From: an uncultured Pseudomonadales bacterium
GTDB lineage: Bacteria > Patescibacteriota > Microgenomatia > UBA1400 > MFAQ01
Length of the DNA stretch: 64,000 bases
Assembly: GCA_964429015.1 (NCBI GenBank)
Contig: CAYSAM010000003.1
Span: 6,378 to 70,377, forward strand
Direction of reading: 5' to 3'
Below are positions 7,237 through 44,705 of this stretch, piece by piece (position 1 is the first letter of the stretch; every line of letters begins with the position of its first letter). The position numbers and the translations under genes are program-made. Below the pieces are notes generated by a model. That model was not told where the DNA came from and ran no database searches. It saw nothing but the letters and a program-made list of their open reading frames with translations.

Positions 7237-7884
7237 ATGCTAAACGATTCTTTACGTCTCATGCTTGTTGAATCCACAATAAACGTCTTTAGGGTAGCTT
7301 TAAGTTCACCGTACTTCCTAAAGTCAATTGTGGATATCCCACACATAAACATAGGAAGCAACCTTTGTTTTTATGCAGAGGAGATAGGTGTTTATTGCTG
7401 CATCGACCTTAGTTTAAACGATATATATGTCTCACCAGAGCTAGTTGCTTTGGATTATCAAAATTACCCACAGGCTACCATCCAAGAACTTATTGTTTTG
7501 TCTCAAACACTTGTTCGCTTTGCAAAAAAAACAAGCTTGTGGTCAAGAATTTGTTCTTTATCTTGTCATATCAAAATTACTCCGGGAGAACAAGAACTTC
7601 TGCCACAAAGTTGTTATTTCGATAATGAAATTCTATTTTGGTATAGCCCCAAAATTAACCAGTACCTTAGAGTCGATTTTGTTTCATATAGCTTATTCCT
7701 TATGGATGAGCCTTCAGATCAGAGGAGTGCTTGGAAAGTCCCCTCAGAACAACATTTGCAAGCAGTTATCGAAGAGATTGTAAGTCACTATATATCAATT
7801 CATAAAAAAACAACAATGATTGCTGAGTATATGAATCAATACTTACAAAACAAAGATCTTAGTCAAAAGTTTTCCCTAAGTTAA
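7237..7884 (+). CDS. hypothetical protein (island ORF E, 215 aa)
   Basis: SD AGGAAGG; ORF. Confidence 0.55.
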   Translation: MLNDSLRLMLVESTINVFRVALSSPYFLKSIVDIPHINIGSNLCFYAEEIGVYCCIDLSLNDIYVSPELVALDYQNYPQATIQELIVLSQTLVRFAKKTSLWSRICSLSCHIKITPGEQELLPQSCYFDNEILFWYSPKINQYLRVDFVSYSLFLMDEPSDQRSAWKVPSEQHLQAVIEEIVSHYISIHKKTTMIAEYMNQYLQNKDLSQKFSLS

Positions 7885-13140: not shown

Positions 13141-13704
13141 ATGAACCTAATCATTCTCGGTGCCCCCGGTTCCGGAAAAGGCACCCAAGCCGAAAAAATC
13201 GCCAAAGAATTTAATCTTGCCCACATTTCAGGCGGAGAGTCACTGCGCAAAGAAATAGCCAGTGGGTCAAGAAAAGGCGAACTAATTGCCCACATTATGG
13301 AAAAGGGGGACTTAGTCCCGTTTGAAACAATCTCTTCCGTTATTGAACCAGAAATTCTAGAGAATAAAGACAATTTTATTTTGGATGGTAGTCCCAGAGA
13401 TCTGGTCCAGGCCGAATATCTAAATGCTTTTTTTGCCGAAAACAAAATCAACATCGACTTTGTAATATACCTCCATGTTCCAGACGAAAAACTCATCGAT
13501 AGACTTTTGCTTCGTGCCAAAACCGAAAACCGTGTCGATGATAATTTAGAATCTATTCAAGAGAGATTCAAAGTATTCCACCAAAATACCGAACCTGTCA
13601 TCGCCTTTTACCAAAAAAATTCTCACTTTCTCAAAATAGATGGTGATCGCAGTATCGAAGACATAGCCAAAGAACTCAGTAATATAATAGGACAAAGTAC
13701 ATGA
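13141..13704 (+). CDS. adk: adenylate kinase (short form, no zinc lid)
   Basis: MNLIILGAPGSGKGTQAEKIAKEF... Confidence 0.93.
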   Translation: MNLIILGAPGSGKGTQAEKIAKEFNLAHISGGESLRKEIASGSRKGELIAHIMEKGDLVPFETISSVIEPEILENKDNFILDGSPRDLVQAEYLNAFFAENKINIDFVIYLHVPDEKLIDRLLLRAKTENRVDDNLESIQERFKVFHQNTEPVIAFYQKNSHFLKIDGDRSIEDIAKELSNIIGQST

Positions 13705-14438
13705 GTTCAAAAACCCAAATCATGATCGAAGGCGGCAAACGCCTAGGTCACATCAAATTCCAATTAGCCGAAGCGGTCAAAGCAGGAGTCACCCCACTAG
13801 AGGTCGATGCTCTTGCCGATAAGCTCATCAAGGCAGGAGGAGATAAAGCTAACTTCAAAATGGTCGATGGCTATCGCTTTGCTACTTGTATTAATGTCAA
13901 CGCTGGAATTGTTCATGGTATTCCTACCAACAAACCCTTTCAAGAGGGTGATGTTGTTAAGGTCGATGTTGGTTTATTCCACAACGGTTTCCACTTAGAT
14001 ACTTCCAATACTATCTACATTCCACCCCAAAACGCCAAAGTAAATAATTTTTTAGAAGTCAGTCGTAAGGCCTTAGAGCTGGCCATTTTTACCGCTACCG
14101 CTGGCAACAGTGTTTACGATCTCGGTGTGGCCATGCAAACTACTGTAGAGGCTGGTGGTTATAGCGTCATTCGAGATCTTACTGGCCATGGCATCGGTCG
14201 TCAGCTCCACATGAATCCTTTTATTCCCTGTTATGCCGAACCAAAAACCAAGCGAGATATTTTAAGTATCGATCAGACTATTGCTGTAGAGATTATGTCA
14301 GCTATGGGAGACTACCACCTAGTAGAAGAGTCCGATGGTTGGACTCTATCCACCCAAGATGGCTCCATTACTGCTATGTACGAGGAAACCATCTGTATTA
14401 CTGACGGCCAGCCCCTCATTCTCACCGCCATAAACTAG
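13701..14438 (+). CDS. map: methionine aminopeptidase type I
   Basis: ...GHGIGRQLHMNPFIP...; ATGA overlap with adk. Confidence 0.92.
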   Translation: MSSKTQIMIEGGKRLGHIKFQLAEAVKAGVTPLEVDALADKLIKAGGDKANFKMVDGYRFATCINVNAGIVHGIPTNKPFQEGDVVKVDVGLFHNGFHLDTSNTIYIPPQNAKVNNFLEVSRKALELAIFTATAGNSVYDLGVAMQTTVEAGGYSVIRDLTGHGIGRQLHMNPFIPCYAEPKTKRDILSIDQTIAVEIMSAMGDYHLVEESDGWTLSTQDGSITAMYEETICITDGQPLILTAIN

Positions 14439-14512
14439 CTCTTTCTTGGTAGTTTGGTGGTCTATAATACCCACATCACCGCAGTTTAAATTTGTATAAA
14501 TTAGGAGTCAAT

Positions 14513-14953
14513 ATGAAAACCTTGTTGTTAGTCCATGATCAAGATTTCCTTTCCACTGCCAGCGCGCTCTGTTACATGCTCACAGCTTCTGGCTTTAGGG
14601 TTGTTTTAAGCTCAGATCTTTTTGCTGGAAGCCTCAAATCAGAAGCCTACAACGATCTCGACAAGATTTTTACCAATACCGCGGCGTTTTTAGTTTTACC
14701 CAGCCCAAATCTCTTTAAAAATGATTTTCTCCTCGGAATTGTTCACGATGCGGTTGGCGAACGCAAGGCTATTCTCCTTTCCTTATCATCTGTCACAAAT
14801 CTGCCTCCGTGGTATACAAATCCCATTGTTATCGACAATCCAGGAGATACCTCACAAGGGCTAAATCAGCTGATAACAAGGTTAAATTTGTTTGTTATGA
14901 ATCAGCCGCCTATTATTACTCCAGACATCATAAGTCTAAGAAGAATCAACTAA
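14513..14953 (+). CDS. hypothetical protein, possibly TIR-like/flavodoxin-like fold
   Basis: SD AGGAG followed by ATG at 14513; alternating beta-alpha pattern (KTLLLVHDQDF...RVVLSSD...AAFLVLPSP...). Confidence 0.45.
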   Translation: MKTLLLVHDQDFLSTASALCYMLTASGFRVVLSSDLFAGSLKSEAYNDLDKIFTNTAAFLVLPSPNLFKNDFLLGIVHDAVGERKAILLSLSSVTNLPPWYTNPIVIDNPGDTSQGLNQLITRLNLFVMNQPPIITPDIISLRRIN

Positions 14954-14964
14954 ACCGTTCAGTT

Positions 14965-14987
14965 GCCCTCCCTTGAGGGCTTTTTTG
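14965..14987 (+). terminator. rho-independent terminator
   Basis: GCCCTC-CCTT-GAGGGC followed by TTTTTT. Confidence 0.85.
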
Positions 14988-15078
14988 TATTCATTTTACC
15001 AGTGATATATGTGTCCCAAACTAGCCACTAGCCAAACCTAGGATTGTTTGCTACAATAGCCGTTGCACACAAAATATT

Positions 15079-15297
15079 ATGGCTAAAAACCAAATGACTG
15101 AGTTAAACGGAGTCGTTTCCGAGTGTCTGCCCAACACCCAATTTAGGGTAACACTAGAAGACGGCAGGGAAATCTTAGCTCATCTTGCCGGACGTATGAG
15201 GCTTCACCGCATTCGCGTCATGCCTGGGGACAAAGTTAAGCTCGAAATGAGCCAATACGACCTCGACAAAGGTAGGATAATCTACAGATCAAACTAA
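15079..15297 (+). CDS. infA: translation initiation factor IF-1
   Basis: 72 aa ...[30 protein letters not shown]... Confidence 0.95.
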
Positions 15298-15344
15298 TTT
15301 CGTTTATCTCTTAAAAAAATTATTTATCACTAAACAAAAATCTA

Positions 15345-15458
15345 ATGCGAGTTCAATCGTCTGTCAGACCTCGATGTAAAAATTGTAAAATTATTAAACG
15401 CCATGGTAAGGTGTTGGTTATTTGCACCAACGCACGTCATAAGCAACGCCAAGGCTAA
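15345..15458 (+). CDS. rpmJ: 50S ribosomal protein L36 (37 aa; too short for the ORF track)
   Basis: [37 protein letters not shown]. Confidence 0.9.
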
Positions 15459-15497
15459 AGTTAAATTTAAAATTTAAACTCAAAAAAATAAACAAAT

Positions 15498-15899
15498 ATG
15501 CCTAGAATTTCCGGAATCGATATCCCAAATGAAAAAAGAATAGACGTTGCTCTTACCTATATCTATGGTATCGGTGAAAAAGTTGCTCACGACATTCTCA
15601 AAACAGCCAAAGTTGATCCTAGTATCCGTACCAAAAATCTAACTGCCGACGAGCTCAGACTTATCCAAACCACCATCGAAACTCTCCCCACCGAAGGTGA
15701 GCTCAGAAAAATCGTTCGCGACAACATCGAAACTCTTAAGCGTATTCAGGCCTACCGCGGTACCAGACACTCCATGGGTCTACCTGTAAGAGGTCAAAGA
15801 ACCAAAACCAATGCTCGCACTCGCAAGGGTAAGAGAAAAACCATTGGTGCCGTTAGTAAAGAAGCCGAAGCCGCCAAGGCAGCAGCTACCAAGAAGTAA
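15498..15899 (+). CDS. rpsM: 30S ribosomal protein S13
   Basis: MPRISGIDIPNEKRIDVALTYIYGIG... Confidence 0.95.
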   Translation: MPRISGIDIPNEKRIDVALTYIYGIGEKVAHDILKTAKVDPSIRTKNLTADELRLIQTTIETLPTEGELRKIVRDNIETLKRIQAYRGTRHSMGLPVRGQRTKTNARTRKGKRKTIGAVSKEAEAAKAAATKK

Positions 15900-15915
15900 T
15901 TAATTTATTCACAAA

Positions 15916-16329
15916 ATGGCAGATAACAAAACCAAATCAAAGACTCAAGTCAAAGTTAAAAAAGCTTCTGGTGTTAGCTTCAAAAGCGGCCAAGGCAAAA
16001 TGTATGTCAAAGCTACATTTAATACTACTTATGTCACCTTTACCGACGCTTCTGGCAACACTCTATGTTGGAGTGCCGCGGGCACTTGCGGATTCAAAGG
16101 CGCCAAACGTTCCACTCCTTTTGCTGCAACTACTATTATCGAAGAAGGTCTCCGTAAAGCAAAATCTATGGGACTTATGTCTGCAGATGTCTACCTCAAA
16201 GGTCCTGGCCCAGGCAAAGATGCTGCTCTTCGTGTGTTAAAAACCTCTGGAATCGAAATTAATACCTTGGCTGACACTACTCCAATCCCTCACAATGGCT
16301 GCCGACCAAGAAAACACCGACGTGTTTAA
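15916..16329 (+). CDS. rpsK: 30S ribosomal protein S11
   Basis: 137 aa ...KGPGPGKDAALRVL... Confidence 0.94.
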   Translation: MADNKTKSKTQVKVKKASGVSFKSGQGKMYVKATFNTTYVTFTDASGNTLCWSAAGTCGFKGAKRSTPFAATTIIEEGLRKAKSMGLMSADVYLKGPGPGKDAALRVLKTSGIEINTLADTTPIPHNGCRPRKHRRV

Positions 16330-16363
16330 ACTAACAACCTATAACTAAAAACCAAGAATAAAT

Positions 16364-16987
16364 ATGGCAAAATATACCGACCCCAAATGCAGACTATGTA
16401 GAAGAGAAGGCACTAAGCTTTATCTCAAAGGTGCTCGCTGTCTTTCCCCCAAATGTCCCATCGACAAAAAAGGCGCTCAAGTTCCAGGTCAACACGGCAA
16501 AAAAAGAGCTCGTGGTCGATTATCTGGATTTGGTTTACAGCTAAGAGAAAAGCAAAAAGCCAAGAGAACTTACTCTGTTTTGGAATCACAGTTCCATGGT
16601 TACTACGATCAAGCTATCAAGTCCCAAGGAAACACTTCTGAAGTTCTCATGCAACTTTTAGAATCTCGCTTAGACAACATTTGTTACCGTCTTGGTTTTG
16701 TCACTTCCCGTTCTTTGGCTCGCCAACTTGTTACTCATGGCAATATTTTAGTTAACGGTAAAAAAGTCGATGTTCCTTCTTTCCAAACCAAACCAGGTAT
16801 GACTATTTCTCTTCCCGAAAAAGCCGCCAAGTTCGATTTTGTCGCACCAAATCTAAACGACAAAAACGTTCCTGCCAAATGGCTCTCTCGTAAAGGCACC
16901 GAAGGCAAAATCGACCGTATGCCTACCTCAGACGAAATTGGCTCCGAAATCAAAGCCAACCTCATTATTGAGTACTACTCTAGATAA
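16364..16987 (+). CDS. rpsD: 30S ribosomal protein S4
   Basis: MAKYTDPKCRLCRREGTKLYLKGARC... Confidence 0.94.
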   Translation: MAKYTDPKCRLCRREGTKLYLKGARCLSPKCPIDKKGAQVPGQHGKKRARGRLSGFGLQLREKQKAKRTYSVLESQFHGYYDQAIKSQGNTSEVLMQLLESRLDNICYRLGFVTSRSLARQLVTHGNILVNGKKVDVPSFQTKPGMTISLPEKAAKFDFVAPNLNDKNVPAKWLSRKGTEGKIDRMPTSDEIGSEIKANLIIEYYSR

Positions 16988-19344: not shown

Positions 19345-22300
19345 GTGACCAGTTTTTTTACCTATCTTCACAAGCTTAACAAAGTAAAAGTTGGAATAAT
19401 TTTTTTATCTCTTTGTTTTTTGGTGTCAGTCGCCGTTTTTATTTTGCCTCAACTTCGTCAAACTGCGCGCATCAAACTTGGATCAGTAGACGGGCTAACT
19501 ATAACCGCTGATAAGCAGGACTCTCTCGGTATCTTCACCAATACCCAATTTACCGTCAAAACAGATACTGATCTGAGCTCTTCCGACATCAAAAAGAACC
19601 TCACCATTTTTCCTGCTACAGAATTCGATATTCAGCCGATTTCTGCACGTCAATTCACCTTAACTCCAAAACAACACCTCCTAGATAACAGTATCTACAG
19701 AATCGAAGTCAAAACCAATCAAAAAACTTTTTCGTGGGCATTTCAAACCAAAAATGATTTTCGTGTAGTCAATTCTCTTCCAGCCGACAAAACAGCCTAC
19801 GTACCCACAAACACAGGTATAGAACTAATTTTTAGCCACGACAACTGGGAAGATCCAAAAAGTTTCTTTTCTATTCATCCCAAGACGGAAGTAAGTTTCG
19901 AGCGCCACGGCCGGACCGCCTCATTTTTGCCTAAGTCCTTAAATCCCGGAACTCTTTATACCGTTACTCTCAAAAAAGGTCTAAAGCTAAACGGTACTGT
20001 CGATATCCTAAAAGACGATTTCACTTTTCAATTCGAAACAAAACCTTCCACTCCAATACAATCAAAAGTAAGCTTTTCCAAACTAACTTACGAATTTTCT
20101 GACACAGTAACACCAGCTTTCGATGTCTATGTTCCCAGTGAATCACTTTCGGCTATTTCTGCTGATATTTACAAATATCCCGGAGACTCAAGTTTTCTAA
20201 ATCATCTAAATGAAAAAATCTCTACCCCCTCGTGGGCAACTTACTCGGTTAGTAGCGATGTTTTACCAACTAACAATCTTACCAAAGTGGTTTCCCTAAA
20301 TCTAAATATTCAAAAGCAAAAATATAGTAACTTTTTCTCACTTCCCCAAACCCTACCTCTTGGACAATACCTTATCGAGGTATCTGCTGGTGGTCAAAAA
20401 TCCCAAGCACTATTTCAGGTTACCAATGTTTCCGCTTACTTTACCCAAAGTGGCACCAAAACTCTAGTTTGGGTCAACAGTTTAGCAAACGCTCCACTTT
20501 CTGGTGCTACGGTAACTTACAACAATAACAATCAGACCACCGATCAAAACGGCATCTCTTACTTCGAAACTGAACCCTCAGATATACAACTAGGTTTTCA
20601 AAATAAAACAACTATAGTTGCCGTGAAGCAGTCACTTGGAGCTCTTTATTTTCCTTTAAAGAGCGATTATTCTATTTTTTACCAAAAGCAATCACGCCAA
20701 TCAGATAAGTACTGGAGTTATATTTATCTAGACAGGCCCACCTATCTTCCAACAGATACTGTAAAGCTTTGGGGTTTACTCAAAAACAGAGATCTGCCAG
20801 ATAAAAAAACAGAATTTACCTTAGAGGTTACTCGCTCCGATTATCATTCTTGGGACTATCAGCCCATTGCTGTCTATTCCAAAAAAGTTACAACAACAGA
20901 TTTAGGAACCTATCTCGAAGAAATCAACCTCAATCAGTTTTCACCAGGCTGGTATACACTCAGTTTTAAGGTTGGTAATGATATCGTTATTAATTCAGGT
21001 TTTAGTGTTGAAACCTATGTCAAACCAGCCTACAAAATTTCTGTTCAACCTTCGGTCAAAGCTGCTTTTTCTGGAGATCAAATTAATCTTTTAGGTCAGG
21101 CCCAATTTTTTGAGGGGACACCTGTTGTTGGTTTACCGCTAAAAAGCTACAATTCTGACAGTAGTCTAGCTTCACTTACTCCAATCACTGACAACCAGGG
21201 TAAATTTTCAGTTTCTGTTCCTGTAAATAATGGTTCTGCAAATTATTCTCCTAATAATGTGAGTTTTACTTTCTCTCCAAAAAATCCTGAAGAGGGGCAA
21301 ATTTCTGGAAGCGCCAGCCTTGCTGTCTTTTCCTCTTCTCTCTATTTTCCTTATCCACGCATAGACAATAAAAACAATCAATCATCAGTTACTATCAACC
21401 TTCGTCAAGTAGATCTTCAAAAATACTCTCCCACAGCCGACCTCGCCGAGGTTTTTAATCCAGCACCAAATCAAAATGTTCACGCTGTTATTTATCAAAT
21501 CGATTGGCTCAAAAATCAGGTTGGTACGTACTACGATTTTATAAACAAGGTAACCTCTCCAACTTACGAATACTCACAATCTCAAAAGCAAATAGGGGAG
21601 TTTGACTTGGTTACAAATAGTTCTGGTCAAGCCACTTATAGTGTCAATCTCCCCGAAAATACAACATATAAAATTTCATTTTCTTCCAAGGATTCACTGG
21701 GCAGGACGGTTACTCAAGAAGCCATTTTGTACGGTAACAATTATGGTAATTCAGACGACAATTTTCTTTATCTAAAAACCGATAAAGAACAAGAGAAACC
21801 AAATACGTATAATATCGGCGAGCAAGTTAACCTTCATATTGAACAGGGTGGTAAAACTATAGCCGAAAACGAGTCAGACAAGTTTCTTTTTATTGTTTCT
21901 CAGCGCGGAATCAGATCATATTATCTCTCAGATAATGGCCTATTCAGCTTTAAATTTCCCGAAACCTTTATTCCAAACTTTTTTATCCAAGCAGTAAGAT
22001 TCAACGGTCAAACCTACCAAGCTACCGAAAATCTAAGCCTTTACTTCAACCAGGACTCCAAAAAATTAAACATTAAACTTTCCTCAGATAAACCTCTGTA
22101 CGAACCTGCTGATACTGCCAAAATTAACGTTACCACTTCAGACAATAGTGGCAATCCTATCCCTGCTGAAGTAGTCCTCAACGTGGTCGACGAGTCATAT
22201 TATGCACTCTTCACAGATTATCTCAATCCACTTTCAGAGATATACAAATCTGTCCAAACAGATATCATTACTACTTACGCCACACATCAATATCCAAGCA

Positions 22301-24528
22301 ACAACTCCGGAGCCGAAGGTGGTGGTTGTTTTCTTCCTGGAACCCAAATTCTTATGGCCGATGGAAAATCAAAAGGAATAGAGGAAATAAAAGTAGGTGA
22401 TAATATTAAAACTCGTCAAAGTCTCACTGACAAAAAACTAGTTAGTGCTAAGGTCAAAGAAGTCTTCACTCATCAAGTCAACGGCTACCTGCTAATAAAC
22501 AATCATCTTCGTGTCACCAAGGAGCACAACCTATATGTCAATGGTCGTTGGTTGACGGCAGGTGAGGTTAGGATTGGAGATAGTTATTTGTCAGTCGATG
22601 GAACTTACCAAACAATCAAGTCTATAGAGCCTCAGTCTGGTTTGTACAATGTTTACAACTTATCTATCGACAATCTTCACACCTACTTTGCTGAGGGCTT
22701 TTATGTTCACAACGAAAAAGGCGGTTCCCTTTTCAAAGACACAGCCTTTTTCGGCAACCTAACTACCAATAATCAAGGTCAAGGGTCTGTTGATATAAAA
22801 TTACCCGACAATCTCACTTCTTGGCGCGTGTCTTCAGTGGGACTCAGTTCCAATCTACAAGCAGGCAGTAAAACATTTCCACTGATTGTCAGGTTACCGT
22901 TTTTCCTCACCGCTACTCTTAATACTGACTACTTAGTTTCAGATAAACCTGTTGTTGTTGTACGCGCCTTTGGAGACAGTCTAGTTTCTGGTGATCAGGT
23001 AAATCTAAAAGTCGAGTCTTCTACCTTAAGTATCTCAAAATCAGTTTCTGGTCAAGCTTTCGAGCCCATAAAAATTGACATCAGTCCTCTAAAAGAAGGT
23101 CAACACAAACTAATTTTTACCGCCAGCTCACCAAAAGGTGGTTACAAGTTAGAAAGAACCATCAATGTTCTATCTACTCATCTTTCAAGGAGGTTTACAA
23201 AGTCTATCCCTCTAGCCGAAAATATTTCTTCATCCTCTTTTTCTGCTCAAAATCAAAAACTCGTAATTGCAGATCAAGGGTTAGGGAAGTATTATTCTCA
23301 ACTAACGTCTTTAACTTCCACTTGGGGTGATCGTCTAGATCAAAAAAACGCTCGATCCTTATCTCAGGAGTTGCTAAATCAATATTTCCAGGATCAAAAA
23401 CCCGTGGAGAAAATAGATTTCAATCTATACCAAACAAATACCGGAGGAATATCCCTCTTTCCTTACTCTGGTGCCGACATCGAAAACACATCCTTCATAG
23501 TAGCTTTAAGCAAAAATAAAATTGACAACTCCGCTGTTAAAAGCTACCTGTACTCAGCTCTTACCAAAGCAAAAGATCCAAATACCGCCAGTAAAGCACT
23601 ATTTGGTATTGCCAGTTTGGGTGAGCCGGTTCTTATCCAGATCAACAACATCATCGAAGATTCAAAAATAGATTTGGAGACAAAACTTTATCTTGGTTTG
23701 TCACTAGCAGAAATAGGTGACAAGGAAAAATCTTTATCACTCTACAAGGAGCTACTTGCCACAACCAAATTAGAAGAACAAAACATTTCCATCATTGCAC
23801 TTTTTGCTGACCTGTCAGCCATACTTGGTCAGTCAGAGGCAGACGATTTTCTTAACCGTGTCTTTACCACCTCATCTAAGGAGTACTCATTAGTAAGTCA
23901 AAAACTATTTGCACTTCAGAGTCTGTTACCAAGAGCCAGTACAGAACCAGTCGCTTTTACTTATAGTCTTGCTGGCACAGAAAAAAAGATCACTCTTGCC
24001 AAAGGGCAAAACTTAAACCTCTATGTTACGGAAAAGGACTTAGCCACTCTAAAATTCTCAAATATCTCTGGTCAAGCCATCATCACTTCTGTTATTTCTG
24101 TTCCTGTAGAGCCTGCCAAAATGGCAGCCAATTCCAGCCTAGTTCTTACCAGAACCTTTTATGTTGCGGGTAAAGAATCAACTTCAATAGGTGAATCAGA
24201 CTTAGTTAAAGTCGGTCTTACTTTCCAGATAAACGAAAATCTTCAAGATGGTTGTTATCAAGTTCAGGATGTTTTACCTTCCGGTCTAAAACCTGTTTCT
24301 GCCTTGTTATACCCCGGCCAAGACACCGATTTTTATCACTACCCCTACCAAATCGATGGCCAAAAAGTTAGTTTTTGTGTAACTAAAAACAGCACTAACA
24401 AAAATATTTACTACTATGCAAGAGTCGTAAACCAAGGCGTTTTCAAAGCAGAAAATGCCTTAATTCAGTCCTTAGCTAGCCCCTCCATTTTTACTCTCTC
24501 GCCTTCTTCTGAAGTAAATATAAAATGA
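19345..24528 (+). CDS. large alpha-2-macroglobulin-family surface protein (1727 aa) with embedded Hint / bacterial intein-like domain
   Basis: N-terminal TM/signal; Big-like repeats; A2M-domain signature ...LPDNLTSWRVSSVGL...RLPFF... with VVDESYYAL upstream. Residues 995-1123 run from CFLPGTQILMADG to FYVHN, which is Hint-like. No CxEQ thioester. Confidence 0.8.
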   Translation: MTSFFTYLHKLNKVKVGIIFLSLCFLVSVAVFILPQLRQTARIKLGSVDGLTITADKQDSLGIFTNTQFTVKTDTDLSSSDIKKNLTIFPATEFDIQPISARQFTLTPKQHLLDNSIYRIEVKTNQKTFSWAFQTKNDFRVVNSLPADKTAYVPTNTGIELIFSHDNWEDPKSFFSIHPKTEVSFERHGRTASFLPKSLNPGTLYTVTLKKGLKLNGTVDILKDDFTFQFETKPSTPIQSKVSFSKLTYEFSDTVTPAFDVYVPSESLSAISADIYKYPGDSSFLNHLNEKISTPSWATYSVSSDVLPTNNLTKVVSLNLNIQKQKYSNFFSLPQTLPLGQYLIEVSAGGQKSQALFQVTNVSAYFTQSGTKTLVWVNSLANAPLSGATVTYNNNNQTTDQNGISYFETEPSDIQLGFQNKTTIVAVKQSLGALYFPLKSDYSIFYQKQSRQSDKYWSYIYLDRPTYLPTDTVKLWGLLKNRDLPDKKTEFTLEVTRSDYHSWDYQPIAVYSKKVTTTDLGTYLEEINLNQFSPGWYTLSFKVGNDIVINSGFSVETYVKPAYKISVQPSVKAAFSGDQINLLGQAQFFEGTPVVGLPLKSYNSDSSLASLTPITDNQGKFSVSVPVNNGSANYSPNNVSFTFSPKNPEEGQISGSASLAVFSSSLYFPYPRIDNKNNQSSVTINLRQVDLQKYSPTADLAEVFNPAPNQNVHAVIYQIDWLKNQVGTYYDFINKVTSPTYEYSQSQKQIGEFDLVTNSSGQATYSVNLPENTTYKISFSSKDSLGRTVTQEAILYGNNYGNSDDNFLYLKTDKEQEKPNTYNIGEQVNLHIEQGGKTIAENESDKFLFIVSQRGIRSYYLSDNGLFSFKFPETFIPNFFIQAVRFNGQTYQATENLSLYFNQDSKKLNIKLSSDKPLYEPADTAKINVTTSDNSGNPIPAEVVLNVVDESYYALFTDYLNPLSEIYKSVQTDIITTYATHQYPSNNSGAEGGGCFLPGTQILMADGKSKGIEEIKVGDNIKTRQSLTDKKLVSAKVKEVFTHQVNGYLLINNHLRVTKEHNLYVNGRWLTAGEVRIGDSYLSVDGTYQTIKSIEPQSGLYNVYNLSIDNLHTYFAEGFYVHNEKGGSLFKDTAFFGNLTTNNQGQGSVDIKLPDNLTSWRVSSVGLSSNLQAGSKTFPLIVRLPFFLTATLNTDYLVSDKPVVVVRAFGDSLVSGDQVNLKVESSTLSISKSVSGQAFEPIKIDISPLKEGQHKLIFTASSPKGGYKLERTINVLSTHLSRRFTKSIPLAENISSSSFSAQNQKLVIADQGLGKYYSQLTSLTSTWGDRLDQKNARSLSQELLNQYFQDQKPVEKIDFNLYQTNTGGISLFPYSGADIENTSFIVALSKNKIDNSAVKSYLYSALTKAKDPNTASKALFGIASLGEPVLIQINNIIEDSKIDLETKLYLGLSLAEIGDKEKSLSLYKELLATTKLEEQNISIIALFADLSAILGQSEADDFLNRVFTTSSKEYSLVSQKLFALQSLLPRASTEPVAFTYSLAGTEKKITLAKGQNLNLYVTEKDLATLKFSNISGQAIITSVISVPVEPAKMAANSSLVLTRTFYVAGKESTSIGESDLVKVGLTFQINENLQDGCYQVQDVLPSGLKPVSALLYPGQDTDFYHYPYQIDGQKVSFCVTKNSTNKNIYYYARVVNQGVFKAENALIQSLASPSIFTLSPSSEVNIK
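22327..22713 (+). mobile_element. Hint (BIL/mini-intein-like) domain inserted in the A2M-like protein
   Basis: Begins with Cys and ends with His-Asn (HN); 129 aa. The +1 residue is Glu, not Cys/Ser/Thr, which argues for BIL-type over a canonical intein. Confidence 0.65.
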
Positions 24529-26258
24529 AGTTTTGGCAGCTTATTCTTGGTTTTTCTCTGATGCTATCTATTGTCTTTTTGTCATTCCGGTCCCGGTCTA
24601 ATACTCAGTCCTCATCATTGCTAGTAGAGCGTGGCAATCCAGAGTCAATCTCGACCACCTTTGCCTACGATCAAAATACTTTTCTAAATTCACTTTCATC
24701 TTCAAATTTCTCAAAAAATAAATACGCAAAAGGAGTAATTATTCCTCATCACCTCCTGGCCTCTCCGCTTATTGTCAAAGGAATAAGTATGCTCAGCGTA
24801 ATTGATCCTCAAAGTACTGTTATTCTGCTATCTCCCAATCATGCAAACCTAGGAAGCTGCGACATTGTCTCTTCAAATCTTCCCTGGTCCACTCCATATG
24901 GAGAAGTCGAAATAGACAAAAAATTGCAAGATGAGTACTTAGTTTCAAAACAAATTTGCATTGATAATTACAGTATAAAAGAAGAACATGGTATCGCTAC
25001 CATCTTGCCATATCTTAAGTATTTTTACCCTCAAGTCAAAGTTCTCCCACTCGCATTTAAAAAAAATATTTCCGAGGAAAAGTTAGAAAAAATAGCCTCA
25101 TTGCTTTCACAAACTTTAAAATATCAAACTAACTTTTTAATTAGCTCAATTGATTTTTCACACAACCTTAGTCTTTCAGAGTCCCAAAAAAAAGATTTGC
25201 TAACCGAAAAATATATCGAATACAAAGACGTCAAAACCATAAAAAATCTTTCCTCTGACTTTCTAGATTCGCCATCGGTACTAATAAATACTTTGCAAAT
25301 AGCCCAAAAAAACGATCTTACTACAAATCAAGAAAATCACAAATCTTCGTACGATTTTGGCTCAAACAGCGATGGGGTTACAAGCTATTTTGTTTATAGT
25401 CTGACTCCAAAACAAACAGATCAAAATTTGACTCTTTTATTTGGCGGCGATGTTATGCTTGGTCGCTCTGTAAATACTCAAATTAGAAATTTTGCCGACT
25501 ATGCCTGGCCAACCAAACTAGTTTCCGAGTTCACAAAACAGTCAGATCTTTTTCTTATAAACCTAGAGTCACCATTCAAGTCAGGGTGTGAGCCAACCGA
25601 CAAGGGTATGGTTTTTTGTGCTCACCCCAATAGCGTGGCCACCCTCGTTAGCGCTGGTGTCGACGTTGTCAATATAGCCAATAACCATATTTATAATCAG
25701 GGCAAAGAGGGTTTATTAGAAACTATCAATATTTTAAATAAAAATAACATTGTATTTGTAGGGGCGGACCCCCGTGTCCGCCCGTTAGATAACCCATTTA
25801 GTTCAATCATCACCATCAAAAATACCAAAATAGCCATCTTAGGTTTCAATGATATTGCACCCTTTCCCCAAGAGGTAAACAAATTGACAGTAGAAAATCT
25901 AACAAGCCAAATTAAAGGTGTTCGTTCTCAGGCAGACTTAGTCATTGTTACTTTTCACTGGGGAAACGAATACCAAAAAGCCAGCCCTCGTCAAAAGGAG
26001 TATGCTCACCTAGCTATCGACCAAGGTGCAGATGCCGTCATCGGTGCCCACCCTCACTGGGTGCAAGAGTTCGAGGAATACCAAGGCAAGCCTGTTTATT
26101 ATTCACTTGGCAATCTGGTCTTCGATCAAATGTGGTCCGAGGAAACCAAAAGTGGACTATTAGTAAAGCTTACCTATCAGAATAAAAAGCTTATCAAAAC
26201 CGAAAACTTTCCCGTAAAAATCGAAAACTACGGCCAACCGTATATAATCAAATTATGA
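24525..26258 (+). CDS. Memo-like (AmmeMemoRadiSam B family) :: CapA/PGA_cap metallophosphatase fusion protein with N-terminal TM
   Basis: N-terminal half: GVIIPHHLLASP...LLSPNH...EHGIATILPYL...SSIDFSHN (Memo pattern). C-terminal half: LLFGGDVMLGRSV...IANNHIYNQG...FHWGNEYQ...GAHPHW (CapA). ATGA overlap with the upstream gene. Confidence 0.65.
   Translation: MKFWQLILGFSLMLSIVFLSFRSRSNTQSSSLLVERGNPESISTTFAYDQNTFLNSLSSSNFSKNKYAKGVIIPHHLLASPLIVKGISMLSVIDPQSTVILLSPNHANLGSCDIVSSNLPWSTPYGEVEIDKKLQDEYLVSKQICIDNYSIKEEHGIATILPYLKYFYPQVKVLPLAFKKNISEEKLEKIASLLSQTLKYQTNFLISSIDFSHNLSLSESQKKDLLTEKYIEYKDVKTIKNLSSDFLDSPSVLINTLQIAQKNDLTTNQENHKSSYDFGSNSDGVTSYFVYSLTPKQTDQNLTLLFGGDVMLGRSVNTQIRNFADYAWPTKLVSEFTKQSDLFLINLESPFKSGCEPTDKGMVFCAHPNSVATLVSAGVDVVNIANNHIYNQGKEGLLETINILNKNNIVFVGADPRVRPLDNPFSSIITIKNTKIAILGFNDIAPFPQEVNKLTVENLTSQIKGVRSQADLVIVTFHWGNEYQKASPRQKEYAHLAIDQGADAVIGAHPHWVQEFEEYQGKPVYYSLGNLVFDQMWSEETKSGLLVKLTYQNKKLIKTENFPVKIENYGQPYIIKL
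25749..25779. repeat. REP-like palindrome (family 2) inserted in-frame within the CapA-like CDS
   Basis: GTAGGGGCGGACCCCCGTGTCCGCCCGTTAG; near-identical to the element downstream of the RAYT at 44628. Confidence 0.7.
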
Positions 26259-27884: not shown

Positions 27885-27955
27885 TCGGGGTACTCGGAAT
27901 TGAACCGAGATCATGCGCACCCCATGCGCACATACTGCCGTTATACTATACCCCG
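27885..27955 (-). tRNA. tRNA-Pro (anticodon GGG)
   Basis: Minus-strand read CGGGGTA-TA-GTAT-AACGGCA-GTAT-G-TGCGC-ATGGGGT-GCGCA-TGAT-CTCGG-TTCAATT-CCGAG-TACCCCG-A: 7-bp acceptor, TTCAATT T-loop, U33, G37. CCA is not encoded. Confidence 0.8.
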
Positions 27956-28123
27956 TAGCTAACAGAGTTATTTTATCACGCATATAGAAACCTAACTTAA
28001 TATTTTAATTTGACATGGGTACTTGCAAAAATAACCCGAAAGGATTAAATTGATTCTTGTAGGGGATGACTCCCACGTCAACCCAAAAAATAAACAATAA
28101 AAATAAAAATTAACCAAAACAAA

Positions 28124-29182
28124 ATGGCCAAAAAATCAAAAAATGAAGAAGCAAAAGGTGTCCAAACTCACGTCGACAATAGCGCTCGTCTTACCGCAGT
28201 AAAAATCGCCATGCAACAAATCACCAAACAATTTGGTGAAGGCGCCATCATGCACATGGACTCCGACAAAATCAACGACAAAATCCCCGTAATCTCTACT
28301 GGCTCCATAAGTTTAGATTTAGCTCTTGGTGTTGGTGGTTTCCCCAAAGGTCGCATTATCGAAGTCTACGGTCCAGAGGCTTCAGGTAAGACCACGGTTG
28401 CTCTCCACGTTGTTGCCGAAGCTCAAAAGCTTGGAGGTATCGCTGCCTTTATCGATGCAGAGCATGCTTTAGATCCAAGCCGTGCCAAATCTATTGGTAT
28501 AAATTTAGAAGAACTCTTACTCTCCCAGCCAGACAATGGCGAACAGGCACTAGAGATTGCTGAAACTTTAATTCGTTCTGGCGGAGTCGATGTTGTTGTC
28601 ATTGACTCAGTTGCCGCCCTAGTTCCCAAAGCTGAAATCGAAGGGGAAATGGGGGATGCTGCCATGGGTATGCAAGCGCGTCTTATGAGTCAGGCACTAA
28701 GAAAAATAACCGGTGCCATTTCCAAAAGTAAATGTATTGTTATTTTTACTAATCAACTAAGAGACAAAATTGGTGTCATGTTCGGTAATCCCGAGGTCAC
28801 TACTGGTGGTAAAGCGCTAAAATTCTATGCCTCCATCCGTATCGACATGCGTAAAATTGGCAACATCCAAGAGGGAGACGAAATTATTGGTTCACGTCAT
28901 CGCGCTAAAATAGTCAAAAACAAAGTTGCTTCCCCTTTCAAATTAGCCGAGTTCGATGTTCTCAATGTTGGTGGCATTAGTAAGTTAGGAGATCTTCTAG
29001 ACACCGCCATTGCCTACGGCGTCGTCGAAAAAGCCGGCTCCTTTATTAAATACGATGGCCAAACTCTGGCGCAAGGACGCGATGCCGCCAAAGCAGTTTT
29101 GTCTGGTCAGCCAGAAACTGTTGAGAAAATCAAAGAGCAAGTAATGGAAAAGGTCAATGCCGGAGTACAACCAGAAAAATAG
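28124..29182 (+). CDS. recA: recombinase RecA
   Basis: ...[27 protein letters not shown]...FIDAEHALD... Confidence 0.96.
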
Positions 29183-31340: not shown

Positions 31341-32279
31341 ATGACTATAATCACCGGTTGTGAAGGTCCAGATCTAGATGGTGTTGCCTGCATGATTGCC
31401 TATTCTGAGTTGTTAAATGCAAAGGGTATTCAGTCCAAGGCCAAATACTTTGGCAAACTCGATTTGGAAACCAATTTTGTCACCAAGTTCACTAATTATT
31501 TTCCGTTAGACGAAGGATCGTATCTACATGACGCCGACTATGTTCTAGTCGATACTGCAAATCCAGACATAATTGATAAAAATATACCAATCGATCGGGT
31601 AATTTCAGTTTTCGATCATCGTCAACTTGTATTTACCAATAAATTCACCAATGCAGAATTACATATCGAACTGGTTGGTTCCTGCGCCACCTTAATTACC
31701 GAAGAGTTCCAAAAGGCAAAAGTAACCCCAAGCATTAACTCGGCGACTTACCTGTATTCTGCAATTGTTTTTAGTACTATAAACTTCAAAAATACGGTCA
31801 CAACAGATAGAGATATCAAAGCAGCCGAATGGCTACTGTCTATTGCAAATACAAGCGAAAGCTTTGTTCGCGATTTATTTTCAGCAAAATCTCAAATATC
31901 TCCATCCAATCTTTATGAAATATTGTCACAGGATTTTTCCATAAAAACTCTATCAGATCACAAAATCGGTATTGCTCAAATTGAAATGGTCAACATCAAT
32001 CGTTTCTTGTCCGACCTCAAACAACCTCTTAAAGAGGCACTCTCCAAACTAAAAACAGACAACAACTTGGAATATATCTTTTTCAATGGTATTGATGTCA
32101 TTGACGGCTACAGTCTGTTCATAGTTATCGATTCGGCTTCGGCAGACATCTTCTCTTCGATACTCGGAATTTCCAGGTTCGAATACTCACATCAACATCC
32201 CTCCATCATCATGCGCAAACAAATCTGGCCAAAAGTTGAAGAACATCTAAAAACCCGCGCCTCCGAAATCGCCTCATAA
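31341..32279 (+). CDS. DHH-family phosphoesterase-like protein (degenerate, NrnA-like N-terminal domain) whose last 8 codons duplicate the rny 3' end
   Basis: MTIITGCEGPDLDGVACMIAY...LVDTANPD...VISVFDHRQ (DHH motifs); C-terminus ...KTRASEIAS identical to the rny tail. Confidence 0.55.
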   Translation: MTIITGCEGPDLDGVACMIAYSELLNAKGIQSKAKYFGKLDLETNFVTKFTNYFPLDEGSYLHDADYVLVDTANPDIIDKNIPIDRVISVFDHRQLVFTNKFTNAELHIELVGSCATLITEEFQKAKVTPSINSATYLYSAIVFSTINFKNTVTTDRDIKAAEWLLSIANTSESFVRDLFSAKSQISPSNLYEILSQDFSIKTLSDHKIGIAQIEMVNINRFLSDLKQPLKEALSKLKTDNNLEYIFFNGIDVIDGYSLFIVIDSASADIFSSILGISRFEYSHQHPSIIMRKQIWPKVEEHLKTRASEIAS

Positions 32280-32291
32280 AAATGCATTGTT

Positions 32292-32350
32292 GGGGCGAGG
32301 TTCCTCTCGCCCCCGTCATTGCGAGTCACGGCTTCAGGTCGGCCACGGTG
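32292..32350. repeat. perfect 8-bp hairpin GGGGCGAG-GTTCCT-CTCGCCCC followed by a family-1 GTCATTGCGAG element
   Basis: ggggcgaggttcctctcgcccccgtcattgcgagtcacggcttcaggtcggccacggtg. Confidence 0.7.
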
Positions 32351-43322: not shown

Positions 43323-44183
43323 ATGAACTGGATGAAGCACCTCTCCCTCTACTTTTTACTTTCAGCGCTAATAATTATTCCCGGAACCTATTCCTTAACT
43401 AAATACGGCTTTAAACTTTCAATTGAGTTTACTGGTGGAACCTTGGCTAGTTTTAACATTGAAGACAGTAAAAAAAACAATTTAGTCCAGTCTTTAAATG
43501 CATACAACCCGCAAACCGAAAATAACATTCCAGGTCACATTACCCTCAAGCTCAAAGAAATTTCCGAAAAAGATCTTTTGCAAATTATGCAAAAAACCAG
43601 CACTTTAAGTGCAGAGATAAATCTTAGTAGTTTTGAAACAGTCGGACCTGTTCTCGGTCAAGAAACTCTCAAAAAAACTCTTAATGCCTTAGCTATTTCT
43701 TCTTTGCTTTTGCTTATATATATAAGCAGTGCTTTTAAACAATTTAAATATGGTGTTAGCGCCATTATCGCCATGTTGCACGATACTGTAGTTCTTCTAG
43801 GATCTTTTTCCCTTCTAGGGCACTTTTATGGTATCGAAGTTGACTTGCTTTTTGTAACTGCCGTTCTCACTATTCTTTCATTTTCTGTTCACGATACTAT
43901 TGTTGTTTATGACCGTATTAGAGAGTTAAGTCACAAGGTAAAAGGCGTATCTTTTGTAGATCTTGTCAACCAAGCTGTTTCTGAAACCATGGTCCGTTCC
44001 CTGAACAACTCCTTAACTATTATTTTTATGCTTATCGCCATGTTCCTAATTGGGGGAGAGTCCACCAAATATTTTTCCTTAGCTCTGTTAATCGGTACCA
44101 TTACCGGAACTTACTCTAGTACTTTCACCGCCGCTCCACTCCTTGTTGTTTGGAATAAATTATTCGAAAAAAATAAAAAATAG
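43323..44183 (+). CDS. secF: protein translocase subunit SecF
   Basis: ...IEFTGGTLASFNIE...; 6 TM. Confidence 0.9.
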   Translation: MNWMKHLSLYFLLSALIIIPGTYSLTKYGFKLSIEFTGGTLASFNIEDSKKNNLVQSLNAYNPQTENNIPGHITLKLKEISEKDLLQIMQKTSTLSAEINLSSFETVGPVLGQETLKKTLNALAISSLLLLIYISSAFKQFKYGVSAIIAMLHDTVVLLGSFSLLGHFYGIEVDLLFVTAVLTILSFSVHDTIVVYDRIRELSHKVKGVSFVDLVNQAVSETMVRSLNNSLTIIFMLIAMFLIGGESTKYFSLALLIGTITGTYSSTFTAAPLLVVWNKLFEKNKK

Positions 44184-44631
44184 GCACTCAATCAGGTTAC
44201 CTGGTTATGATTACTCACAAAGTGGGTGGTATTTTGTCACCATTTGTTCATATAAACACGAATGTATTTTTGGGGAAATTGTTGACGGAGAAATGAAATT
44301 AAACGAAATTGGGAAAAACGTGGAACAAAAAATTTTGGAAATGCCAAAGTATTATGGAATAAAAATTGATTGTTTTTGCGTTATGCCAAATCATATACAT
44401 GTTGTTATGGTTATTCCCAACCGTTCGACAATAATAGGGCAGGCGCAGGGGCCTGCCCCTACCATTGGTGAATATGTTAAACGTTTAAAAACCATTACGA
44501 CCAAAAAACAAAAAATGTGGCAACGCAATTATTATGAACATATCGTTCGTGATGATGTGGACATCTCTCGAATTCGTGAATATGTTAATTCAAATGTAAA
44601 AAATTGGATAATTGATAAATTAAATGCGTAG
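44143..44631 (+). CDS. REP-associated tyrosine transposase (RAYT, IS200/IS605 TnpA-like HuH)
   Basis: ...LPGYDYSQSGWYFVTICS...VMPNHIHVVM (HuH)...RNYYEHIVR (catalytic Tyr). No in-frame ATG downstream of the secF stop, so the start is uncertain (41-nt overlap with secF, or a non-canonical start). Confidence 0.75.
   Translation: MLFGINYSKKIKNRHSIRLPGYDYSQSGWYFVTICSYKHECIFGEIVDGEMKLNEIGKNVEQKILEMPKYYGIKIDCFCVMPNHIHVVMVIPNRSTIIGQAQGPAPTIGEYVKRLKTITTKKQKMWQRNYYEHIVRDDVDISRIREYVNSNVKNWIIDKLNA
44437..44466. repeat. REP-like palindrome inside the RAYT CDS
   Basis: GGGCAGGC-GCAGGG-GCCTGCCC. Confidence 0.6.
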
Positions 44632-44705
44632 GGGCAGGCCCCCGTGCCTGCCCTTGTATATCCCCCATGCCTGCCCTTGTATATCCCCCATGCCTGCCCT
44701 TGAAC
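44628..44705. repeat. REP cluster downstream of RAYT: full palindrome GGGGCAGGCCCCCGTGCCTGCCC plus two tandem 23-bp half-site repeats (CCCATGCCTGCCCTTGTATATCC)
   Basis: Same family as 25749-25779. Confidence 0.8.

Follow-up and report, generated by a model that had tools for sequence, protein, structure and literature searches.

A translated GTAG-type REP palindrome in a CapA-like gene of a Patescibacteria genome and its probable renewal at a resident codon

We propose a model for a GC-rich palindrome of 26 nt (GTAGGGGCGGACCCCCGTGTCCGCCC) that lies within a CapA-like gene and is translated with it, in a stretch of 64,000 nucleotides from an uncultured Patescibacteriota bacterium (GenBank assembly GCA_964429015.1, contig CAYSAM010000003.1; the whole stretch is here called the window). 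The palindrome is probably a repetitive extragenic palindrome (REP) of the GTAG type, belonging to the family of TnpA_REP subclass 2.4 and delivered to, then periodically renewed or exchanged at, a site in which it is resident. This subclass (Quentin et al. 2018, PMC6006769) is the same as group 4 of the REP-associated tyrosine transposases, or RAYTs (Bertels et al. 2017, PMC5581495). Since orthologues of 87% and of ~50% identity are occupied, and six palindrome types or a decayed copy stand at the same codon, we infer from the sequences that this codon is an old, repeatedly renewed hotspot and not the product of one recent insertion, as an earlier note on this DNA had supposed.

That note had recognised a RAYT-type REP palindrome within the CapA-like coding sequence, and this identification holds. 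The 31-mer GTAGGGGCGGACCCCCGTGTCCGCCCGTTAG encodes VGADPRVRPLD, residues 412-422 of the open reading frame (ORF) at 24525-26258 (+), although it is found at 25758-25788 (+) and not, as first given, nine bases away at 25749-25779. The palindrome itself occupies 25758-25783 (+) and is read in frame as V-G-A-D-P-R-V-R-P, the frame GTA GGG GCN being the one in which the head yields the conserved Val-Gly and its TAG escapes reading as a stop. When the CapA copy is folded as single-stranded DNA, it forms a stem of 8 bp and a loop of 6 nt at -9.9 kcal/mol (z = -3.9), a stability equalled by none of 200 shuffles, and the foot of its G/C stem consists of three G-C pairs. A degenerate pattern allowing up to three mismatches recovers exactly three sites in the window, namely this copy and two at a transposase gene, and none in 100 dinucleotide-preserving shuffles; the three palindromes are among the five most GC-rich 24-mers of a window whose GC content is 39.4%. 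All three share one design, with GTAG directly 5' of the hairpin foot (25758-25761, 44628-44631 and, on the minus strand, 44462-44459), a foot of three G-C pairs and a stem of 8 bp. The CapA copy and the copy 3' of the transposase gene, TAGGGGCAGGCCCCCGTGCCTGCCCTTG at 44629-44656, were earlier called near-identical, which is overstated, 22 of 26 bases being equal and the four differences amounting to two compensated stem pairs (GGGCGGAC/GTCCGCCC against GGGCAGGC/GCCTGCCC). Counted together, three strict and two degenerate copies lie in 64 kb where none is expected, and 20 GTAGGG-headed hairpins lie in 226 kb of related loci. An Rfam scan of the window matched only a tRNA and no RNA family at the CapA copy, nor was a terminator-like tail or a terminator- or promoter-like site found there.

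The host protein joins a Memo domain (Pfam PF01875, E = 1e-23) to a PGA_cap/CapA-like metallophosphatase (PF09587, E = 1e-62), and the named relatives closest to it belong to Candidatus Collierbacteria and other groups of Patescibacteria. The window protein has VGADPRVRPLDNPFSS at a place where the majority of 70 aligned homologues make a short turn ('VGLGKP' or similar), which bears out the earlier suggestion that the roughly 11 residues are an insertion; L002/P0004, at 60% identity the closest orthologue with an empty site, lacks 8 residues there and bears no trace of the palindrome. The site is also empty in 65 more distant metagenomic homologues with a readable junction. A metagenome scan for CapA relatives gave mainly distant homologues of this empty kind and served as a negative control; its sole new occupied locus (L128) has the same site sequence as L003. 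The CapA domain was modelled with AlphaFold2 (mean predicted local distance difference test score, pLDDT, 89.8; predicted template modelling score 0.90). In the model, residues 118-133 of the domain form a coil between strands E116-118 and E134-137 and are the only internal segment with a pLDDT below 50, in line with the surface loop foreseen earlier. As most homologues are empty, the insert falls in a low-pLDDT coil and the window protein keeps the alignment columns of catalytic motifs that are invariant in the family, the reading of the insert as an extra, flexible loop is well supported. With respect to a pre-existing GTAG at the native Val-Gly codons as a candidate target of the insertion, GTA-GGN is used at only 5 of 20 empty Val-Gly sites, roughly as codon usage predicts. 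Types C, D and F bring a net gain of only two residues over the empty 'VG-LGKP' loop, with head (Val-Gly) and tail (CCC, Pro) coinciding with native residues, and thus the tolerated outcomes may be those that re-create the anchor residues of the loop.

The DNA of 11 orthologues that share synteny with the window (L001-L007 and L208-L211) was compared with it. In these loci ribosomal protein genes and rpoA are followed, at several of them, by an A2M-like giant gene and then by CapA, downstream of which lie bactofilin, recA and RNase Y. GTAGGGG stands at exactly the same codon in the window and in 10 of the 11 orthologues, L002 being empty. Six palindrome variants occur behind this head (types A to F, Table 1), all with the GTAGGGG head and a CCC tail in common and each with a GGG...CCC foot, and in L003 type A is followed by a truncated type B. 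The orthologue at 87% identity (L001) has the palindrome with one stem mismatch, and orthologues at ~50% identity have the same 26-mer. Type A is indeed better preserved than its surroundings, as 25-26 of 26 bases are identical between the window and L003, L004 and L005, against 69-78% over the 90 nt upstream and 40-57% at third-codon positions there. Furthermore, flank identity does not predict type: L004 (type A) and L006 (type D) are 81% identical, L005 (type A) and L007 (type C) 83% and 73%, and more distant pairs are both type A. In an unbootstrapped neighbour-joining tree of 50 CapA domains, empty clades separate occupied ones, and types A to D together with one empty site are interleaved in a single clade. 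The variants also recur elsewhere, type D being identical in the CapA gene of L006 and the RNase Y gene of L003, type B in the CapA gene of L211 and a RAYT remnant of L003, and type A appearing in metagenome-assembled genomes (MAGs) of other phyla. Finally, a second orthologous hotspot lies 50-66 nt upstream of recA in three loci, with GGGTTGAC...GTCAACCC in the window and L001 against GGGCAGAC...GTCTGCCC in L209; the palindrome is perfect in L001 (15448) and of a different type at the same place in L209 (10475). From the preservation of type A above its flanks, the independence of type from flank relatedness, the recurrence of variants and this second hotspot, we infer that family copies have repeatedly renewed or replaced the palindromes at these fixed sites. 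Taken together, the orthologue results argue against a recent one-off insertion and against the passive decay of one old one.

Several observations adjoin these loci. Two orthologues, L003 (15018; gene 14934-16517) and L005 (13673; gene 13616-15199), have type D in frame (PVGAIHESP) where the N-terminus of RNase Y is variable, and the RNase Y genes of L001 and L007 are without a type D palindrome. The palindrome upstream of recA could, by its position, affect recA expression; the tRNA gene of the window (Rfam RF00005, 54.6 bits; 27885-27955 (-)) is ~100 nt upstream of it. Just upstream of CapA is a giant A2M/MG2-like ORF of 1727 residues (19345-24528 (+)), the stop of which overlaps the CapA start (24525-24528) and which contains an in-frame Hint/intein-like segment ('...GGGCFLPGTQILMADG...LHTYFAEGFYVHNEKGG'); its orthologues match Pfam PT-HINT and, faintly, Intein_splicing, Hom_end_hint or Vint.

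The window has a single Y1/HUH gene. Its product carries the HUH motif 'NHIHVV' and conserved W126-Q127...E132-H133...R136 and Y147/N151, and matches Pfam Y1_Tnp at 37 bits (cutoff 23). The top NCBIfam match is the equivalog REP_Tyr_transpos (NF047646), at 54.1 bits against a curated cutoff of 80, and the protein is therefore not filed as that equivalog. At least 7977 homologues exist, many of them named RayT. Among the best 120 of these, 109 have a palindrome-encoded peptide (VGx..P and/or G..APT) right after HUH; 91 have both units, 18 the minus unit only, as in the window, 7 the plus unit only and 4 neither. The internal unit of the window RAYT, GQAQGPAPT, lies 12 residues after HUH and is encoded by GGGCAGGCGCAGGGGCCTGCCC, whose minus-strand form is GTAGGGGCAGGCCCCTGCGCCTGCCC (44462-44437); the earlier note had correctly placed this third variant inside the RAYT gene but gave it as 44437-44466 instead of 44437-44458. 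RAYT-like genes of several phyla have a palindrome or an inverted doublet in frame directly after the HUH strand, as in L098 (...MPNHIHGIILI-VGADPCVCP-IKSNDI-GRTQGFAPT-EKLS...). A search of the PDB with the single sequence found nothing, and a profile built from the window RAYT and 35 homologues was needed; its best solved match is E. coli TnpA_REP (4ER8, E = 6.6e-7), with 2XM3 and 2F4F also found. W126, Q127, R136, Y147 and N151 are invariant in the alignment of homologues, E132 and H133 nearly so, and they align with the GTAG-contact residues W94, Q95, E100, H101 and R104 of 4ER8 and with its catalytic Tyr/Asn. The sequence 'YYEH', a candidate for the catalytic Tyr motif, was ruled out by this alignment, which places it in the GTAG-contact region and makes Y147 the catalytic Tyr. 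By its sequence features the window RAYT thus matches TnpA_REP subclass 2.4. It has the arrangement of a REPtron, with one REP at its stop codon and one inside, and the RAYT genes of L069 and L098 are flanked on both sides.

The sole in-frame start of the RAYT ORF is a TTG at 44143, and the ORF overlaps there the last 41 nt (44143-44183) of an ORF for a membrane protein of 286 residues (43323-44183). Public gene calls give the protein in truncated form, the best database match having 112 aa and 98% identity; its true start and its expression are consequently uncertain. A decayed and truncated RAYT remnant is present in L003 (2340-2760), with MPNHVHV..., an internal minus-oriented type B, a tail NPLNWEKDKLY and a REP of the GGGCAGGC type at the stop; it is gene-called as an ORF of 86 residues without a Pfam match, and a further palindrome lies 80 nt downstream. 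In L026, L045 and L099 the RAYT frame breaks right after the first internal palindrome. Arrays of tandem half-palindromes directly follow REPs at or in RAYT genes, with two units in the window, ~7 in L045 (about 7660-7860) and at least 4 inside the coding sequence of L109.

When one genome per species was scanned for GTAGGGGYNGRCCCCYGYGYCNRCCC, at least 142 copies in at least 120 loci (L008-L127) came up, the genome of the window not being among them, and what follows refers to the matches listed, of which all but two of 120 loci are marked in their record titles as MAG or metagenome assembly. By the same titles they span about twenty phylum-level groups, including Chloroflexota, Planctomycetota, Desulfobacterota, Acidobacteriota, Binatia, Omnitrophota, Cyanobacteria, Bacteroidota and Woesebacteria, at a local GC of 0.40 to 0.74, and the commonest form, GTAGGGGCAGGCCCC(C/T)GTGCCTGCCC, is the REP at the window's RAYT. 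Only 18% of the 142 copies are in stretches open for at least 80 residues on both sides, compared with 61% of random positions, and the family is therefore mostly intergenic, as had been expected of REPs. The CapA copy belongs to the intragenic minority, which favours the GTA-GGG-GCN frame and for which two adenylation domains of non-ribosomal peptide synthetases (NRPSs), a TrpE-like enzyme with two units and a Woesebacteria helix-turn-helix/membrane protein were verified as in-frame hosts. About 8 of the 142 copies are in or beside RAYT-like genes, and inverted doublets are found at several loci, L038, L073 and L097 among them, as well as within RAYT genes. REPs are generally lineage-specific. 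Identity of a 26-mer across phyla is unusual for them and fits co-transfer with a RAYT gene bearing an internal copy. In one Acidobacteriota MAG, two NRPS modules (L085 4710 and L087 2985) each carry the palindrome in frame where the adenylation domain begins, at equivalent positions (...IAL-VGAGPR(V/A)CP-...LTYRQL), which reflects either paralogous inheritance or hotspot behaviour as in CapA.

The REPs surveyed by Di Nocera, De Gregorio and Rocco (2013, BMC Genomics 14:522; PMC3733652) resemble the CapA copy in being short GC-rich stem-loops with a 5' GTAG tag. They are mostly intergenic, but some are contained entirely in an ORF and translated; TAG stop codons are often provided by their GTAG ends, and in two Xanthomonas species roughly one and the same site of recB holds different REPs (Di Nocera et al. 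2013, PMC3733652). The survey differs in covering cultured Proteobacteria, Opitutus and similar organisms, and is without Patescibacteria, CapA or a series of many variants at one orthologous codon; the CapA palindrome sequence was not found in the main text of that paper. For subclass 2.4, insertion of REPs in frame between HuH and Y is described as a unique feature, the inserts being hypervariable and located between beta3 (HuH) and alphaC (Quentin et al. 2018, PMC6006769). Members of this subclass are spread over many phyla and lack a C-terminal extension, and their cognate REPs combine a GT[AG]G head with a stem foot of three consecutive G-C pairs (PMC6006769, PMC5581495). The window RAYT shares with it the HuH/Y core without a C-terminal extension, the in-frame internal REP, the GTAG head and the foot of three G-C pairs, whereas it departs from its usual members in being short (162 aa), in having a single minus-oriented unit instead of an inverted doublet, and in a shortened segment before the W-Q motif. 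As intragenic GTAG REPs, TAG stops supplied by GTAG and internal REPs of subclass 2.4 genes are all published, the CapA case is a further instance of a known phenomenon, and a translated GTAG REP beside a REP-bearing RAYT subclass is in itself ordinary and not the rarity that the earlier note implied. Different REP classes are also known to flank orthologous RAYT genes (Nunvar et al. 2013), and a search of one collection of papers found none that mentions REPINs (doublets of inverted REPs) or RAYTs alongside Patescibacteria.

Other palindromic elements are less close. In Rickettsia, selfish palindromic repeats are found in frame in protein-coding genes of a small AT-rich genome, where the segments that they add to the protein surface are tolerated (Ogata et al. 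2000, as summarised in PMC3733652). Within that summary RPE-1 measures ~100-150 bp, the short elements are CGTC-tagged and no dedicated transposase is known for them, whereas the CapA element is 26 nt long and GTAG-tagged; it thus has neither the consensus nor the CGTC tag nor the ~100-150 bp of the Rickettsia elements. The inverted doublets of the present family recall the REPINs, although the CapA copy is a singleton and therefore not a pair of inverted REPs with a short spacer. REPINs are reportedly due to Bertels and Rainey in 2011. E. coli REPs, or bacterial interspersed mosaic elements (BIMEs), and TnpA_REP (PDB 4ER8) are reportedly treated in studies by Messing and by Ton-Hoang of 2012. 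Likeness to the E. coli system lies in the GTAG guide tetranucleotide 5' of the hairpin and in the aligned W, Q, E, H, R and Tyr/Asn, but the REPs of E. coli are extragenic, with stems that are longer and bulged, the enzyme is of subclass 2.2 and the similarity of the window RAYT to it is remote.

For E. coli TnpA_REP and the IS200/IS605 family, cleavage and joining of single strands is an established mechanism. In the model that we favour, the hairpin would have been delivered to the CapA gene by RAYT-type cleavage and joining of this kind, and would since have been renewed or exchanged either by the same chemistry or by recombining with copies elsewhere in the genome. A GTAG hairpin already in place would be a preferred landing site, such that an occupied site stays occupied and only the variant changes. 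The 8-9 residues encoded would be passengers in a flexible surface loop and not a selected peptide. More tentatively, and as a possibility that we rate below an even chance, a subclass 2.4 RAYT or REP-to-REP recombination may regularly swap variants at the same head position, even in essential or conserved genes, with the resident copy acting as a landing pad.

Several points weigh against delivery and renewal by this family. The stem of the CapA copy (GGGCGGAC) is not an exact copy of that of the REPs at the window RAYT (GGGCAGGC), and the 64 kb contain only 4-5 copies. Transposition or cleavage by the window RAYT, or by any subclass 2.4 enzyme here, is predicted; being short, with one internal unit and a score of 54 against 80 bits, the window enzyme may not be the responsible one or may be inactive. 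Replacement is read from comparison of orthologues and was not sighted directly, as no near-identical pair of genomes differing only at the CapA site was found, the best pairs having ~81-83% flank identity, and the CapA tree is an unbootstrapped neighbour-joining tree. Strong conservation at the DNA level and compensated stems would also fit a hairpin selected for a host function.

Of the other explanations, the one that survives best, while in our judgement unlikely, is turnover by homologous or microhomology-based gene conversion between dispersed REPs through the GTAGGGG head and the CCC(G) tail, the RAYT being irrelevant or having only seeded the family. Identical 7-nt heads and 3-4-nt tails in all variants could prime template switching, the gain of two residues in types C, D and F leaves head and tail as native V-G and P codons, and few of the copies listed (~8/142) are near a RAYT gene. 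Such homology tracts of 7 and 3-4 nt are, however, very short, and the family design is tightly linked to a GTAG-recognising enzyme with conserved contact residues, the subclass 2.4 genes themselves bearing the repeats.

We regard as improbable that a single ancient insertion has been held in place by selection for a host function of the hairpin as nucleic acid, be it mRNA stability, processing, pausing or a DNA hairpin bound by protein, with the variants arising by compensatory mutation. This would account for the invariant head and tail with an inner stem that co-varies while pairing is kept, for third-codon positions conserved within the palindrome far above the flanks, and for the similar behaviour of the orthologous sites in RNase Y and ahead of recA. 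It accords poorly with variants that differ at many positions and in length (24 against 26 nt) without intermediates having been seen, and with the presence of the same variants at unrelated loci and in other phyla, which marks them as family copies and not site-specific inventions. Moreover, copies are decaying (one mismatch each in L001, L007, L208 and L209, and loss in L210), many orthologues are without a palindrome, and neither an Rfam family nor a terminator-like tail is present.

That VGADPRVRP is a native, selected part of CapA and its palindromic DNA a coincidence is effectively refuted, since six unrelated peptides at the site have only the DNA design in common. The wider PGA_cap family does have a longer 'GAGxNxxEAxxP' loop, MslH has IGADLTGARRP, and a G-A-D...R-P pattern of loose resemblance occurs in the longer loops of the solved relative 8GQ9 and of some distant homologues; but the perfect 8-bp palindrome is identical to repeats elsewhere, the nearest relatives are without the peptide, the other variants encode AIHESP, ARRDSS, APLAGAQ, ALRATP and VDPRVDP, and none of the homologues was found to have the peptide without palindromic DNA, so that the refuting case set out in the earlier note did not arise. 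An assembly or binning artefact, with a chimeric join at the repeat, is scarcely credible even though every source is a metagenome assembly, as the same in-frame arrangement and conserved synteny appear in independent assemblies (ENA, JGI, Logan, NCBI) and the reading frame and flanking homology run on across the element.

Table 1. Palindromes and genes of the window, and palindrome types at the CapA site of the window and its orthologues
Feature	Position	Strand	Remarks
Host gene, Memo (AmmeMemoRadiSam B-like) + PGA_cap/CapA-like metallophosphatase fusion, 577 aa	24525-26258	+	Pfam, alignment, model
Type A REP palindrome	25758-25783	+	head GTAG 25758-25761; left arm GGGCGGAC 25762-25769; loop CCCCGT 25770-25775; right arm GTCCGCCC 25776-25783
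Intergenic family member GTAGGGGATGACTCCCACGTCAACCC	28059-28084	+	one stem mismatch; 65 nt upstream of recA-like ORF starting at 28124
REP-like hairpin, mutated head GTTG-GGGCGAGG...TCTCGCCCC	32289-32313	+	just 3' of ORF 31341-32279
RAYT-like Y1/HUH transposase gene, 162 aa	44143-44631	+	only Y1/HUH gene of the window; 19 kb from CapA copy
REP palindrome inside transposase coding sequence	44437-44462	-	+ strand reading G-Q-A-Q-G-P-A-P-T; between HUH and Tyr motifs
REP palindrome, 3' end of transposase gene	44628-44653	+	TAG of GTAG head (44629-44631) is the stop codon of ORF 44143-44631
Two tandem 23-nt half-REP units TTGTATATCCCCCATGCCTGCCC	44654-44699	+	directly after 3' REP of transposase gene
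Type A, GGGCGGAC-CCCCG(T/C)-GTCCGCCC	CapA site		window, L001, L003, L004, L005
Type B, GGGTCGAC-CCCCGC-GTCGACCC	CapA site		L211
Type C, GGGCGAG-GCGTGA-CTCGTCC	CapA site		L007
Type D, GGGCGATTCA-TGAATCGCCC	CapA site		L006
Type E, GGGCACCC-CTCGC-GGGCGCCC	CapA site		L208
Type F, GGGCATTGC-GT-GCAACGCCC	CapA site		L209
Decayed type E	CapA site		L210; same boundaries where window has type A

The present data extend RAYT/REP systems and in-frame REPs to Patescibacteria. The orthologue series is an unusually clean natural experiment, in which one codon is found with six variants, with a decayed copy and in empty states, and the near-perfect state of the palindrome while synonymous sites are saturated bears on whether REPs still move, on what they target and on how they are maintained. 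For annotators, VGADPRVRP, GQAQGPAPT and VGAIHESP in proteins of many phyla are translated REPs and not motifs. If resident copies do act as landing pads, a site once hit would remain occupied over deep divergence while its sequence and loop peptide keep changing. REPs in small Patescibacteria genomes would then steadily generate hypervariable surface loops at set places, such as the CapA loop and the N-terminus of RNase Y, and would also supply variable hairpins at fixed regulatory positions, such as that upstream of recA.

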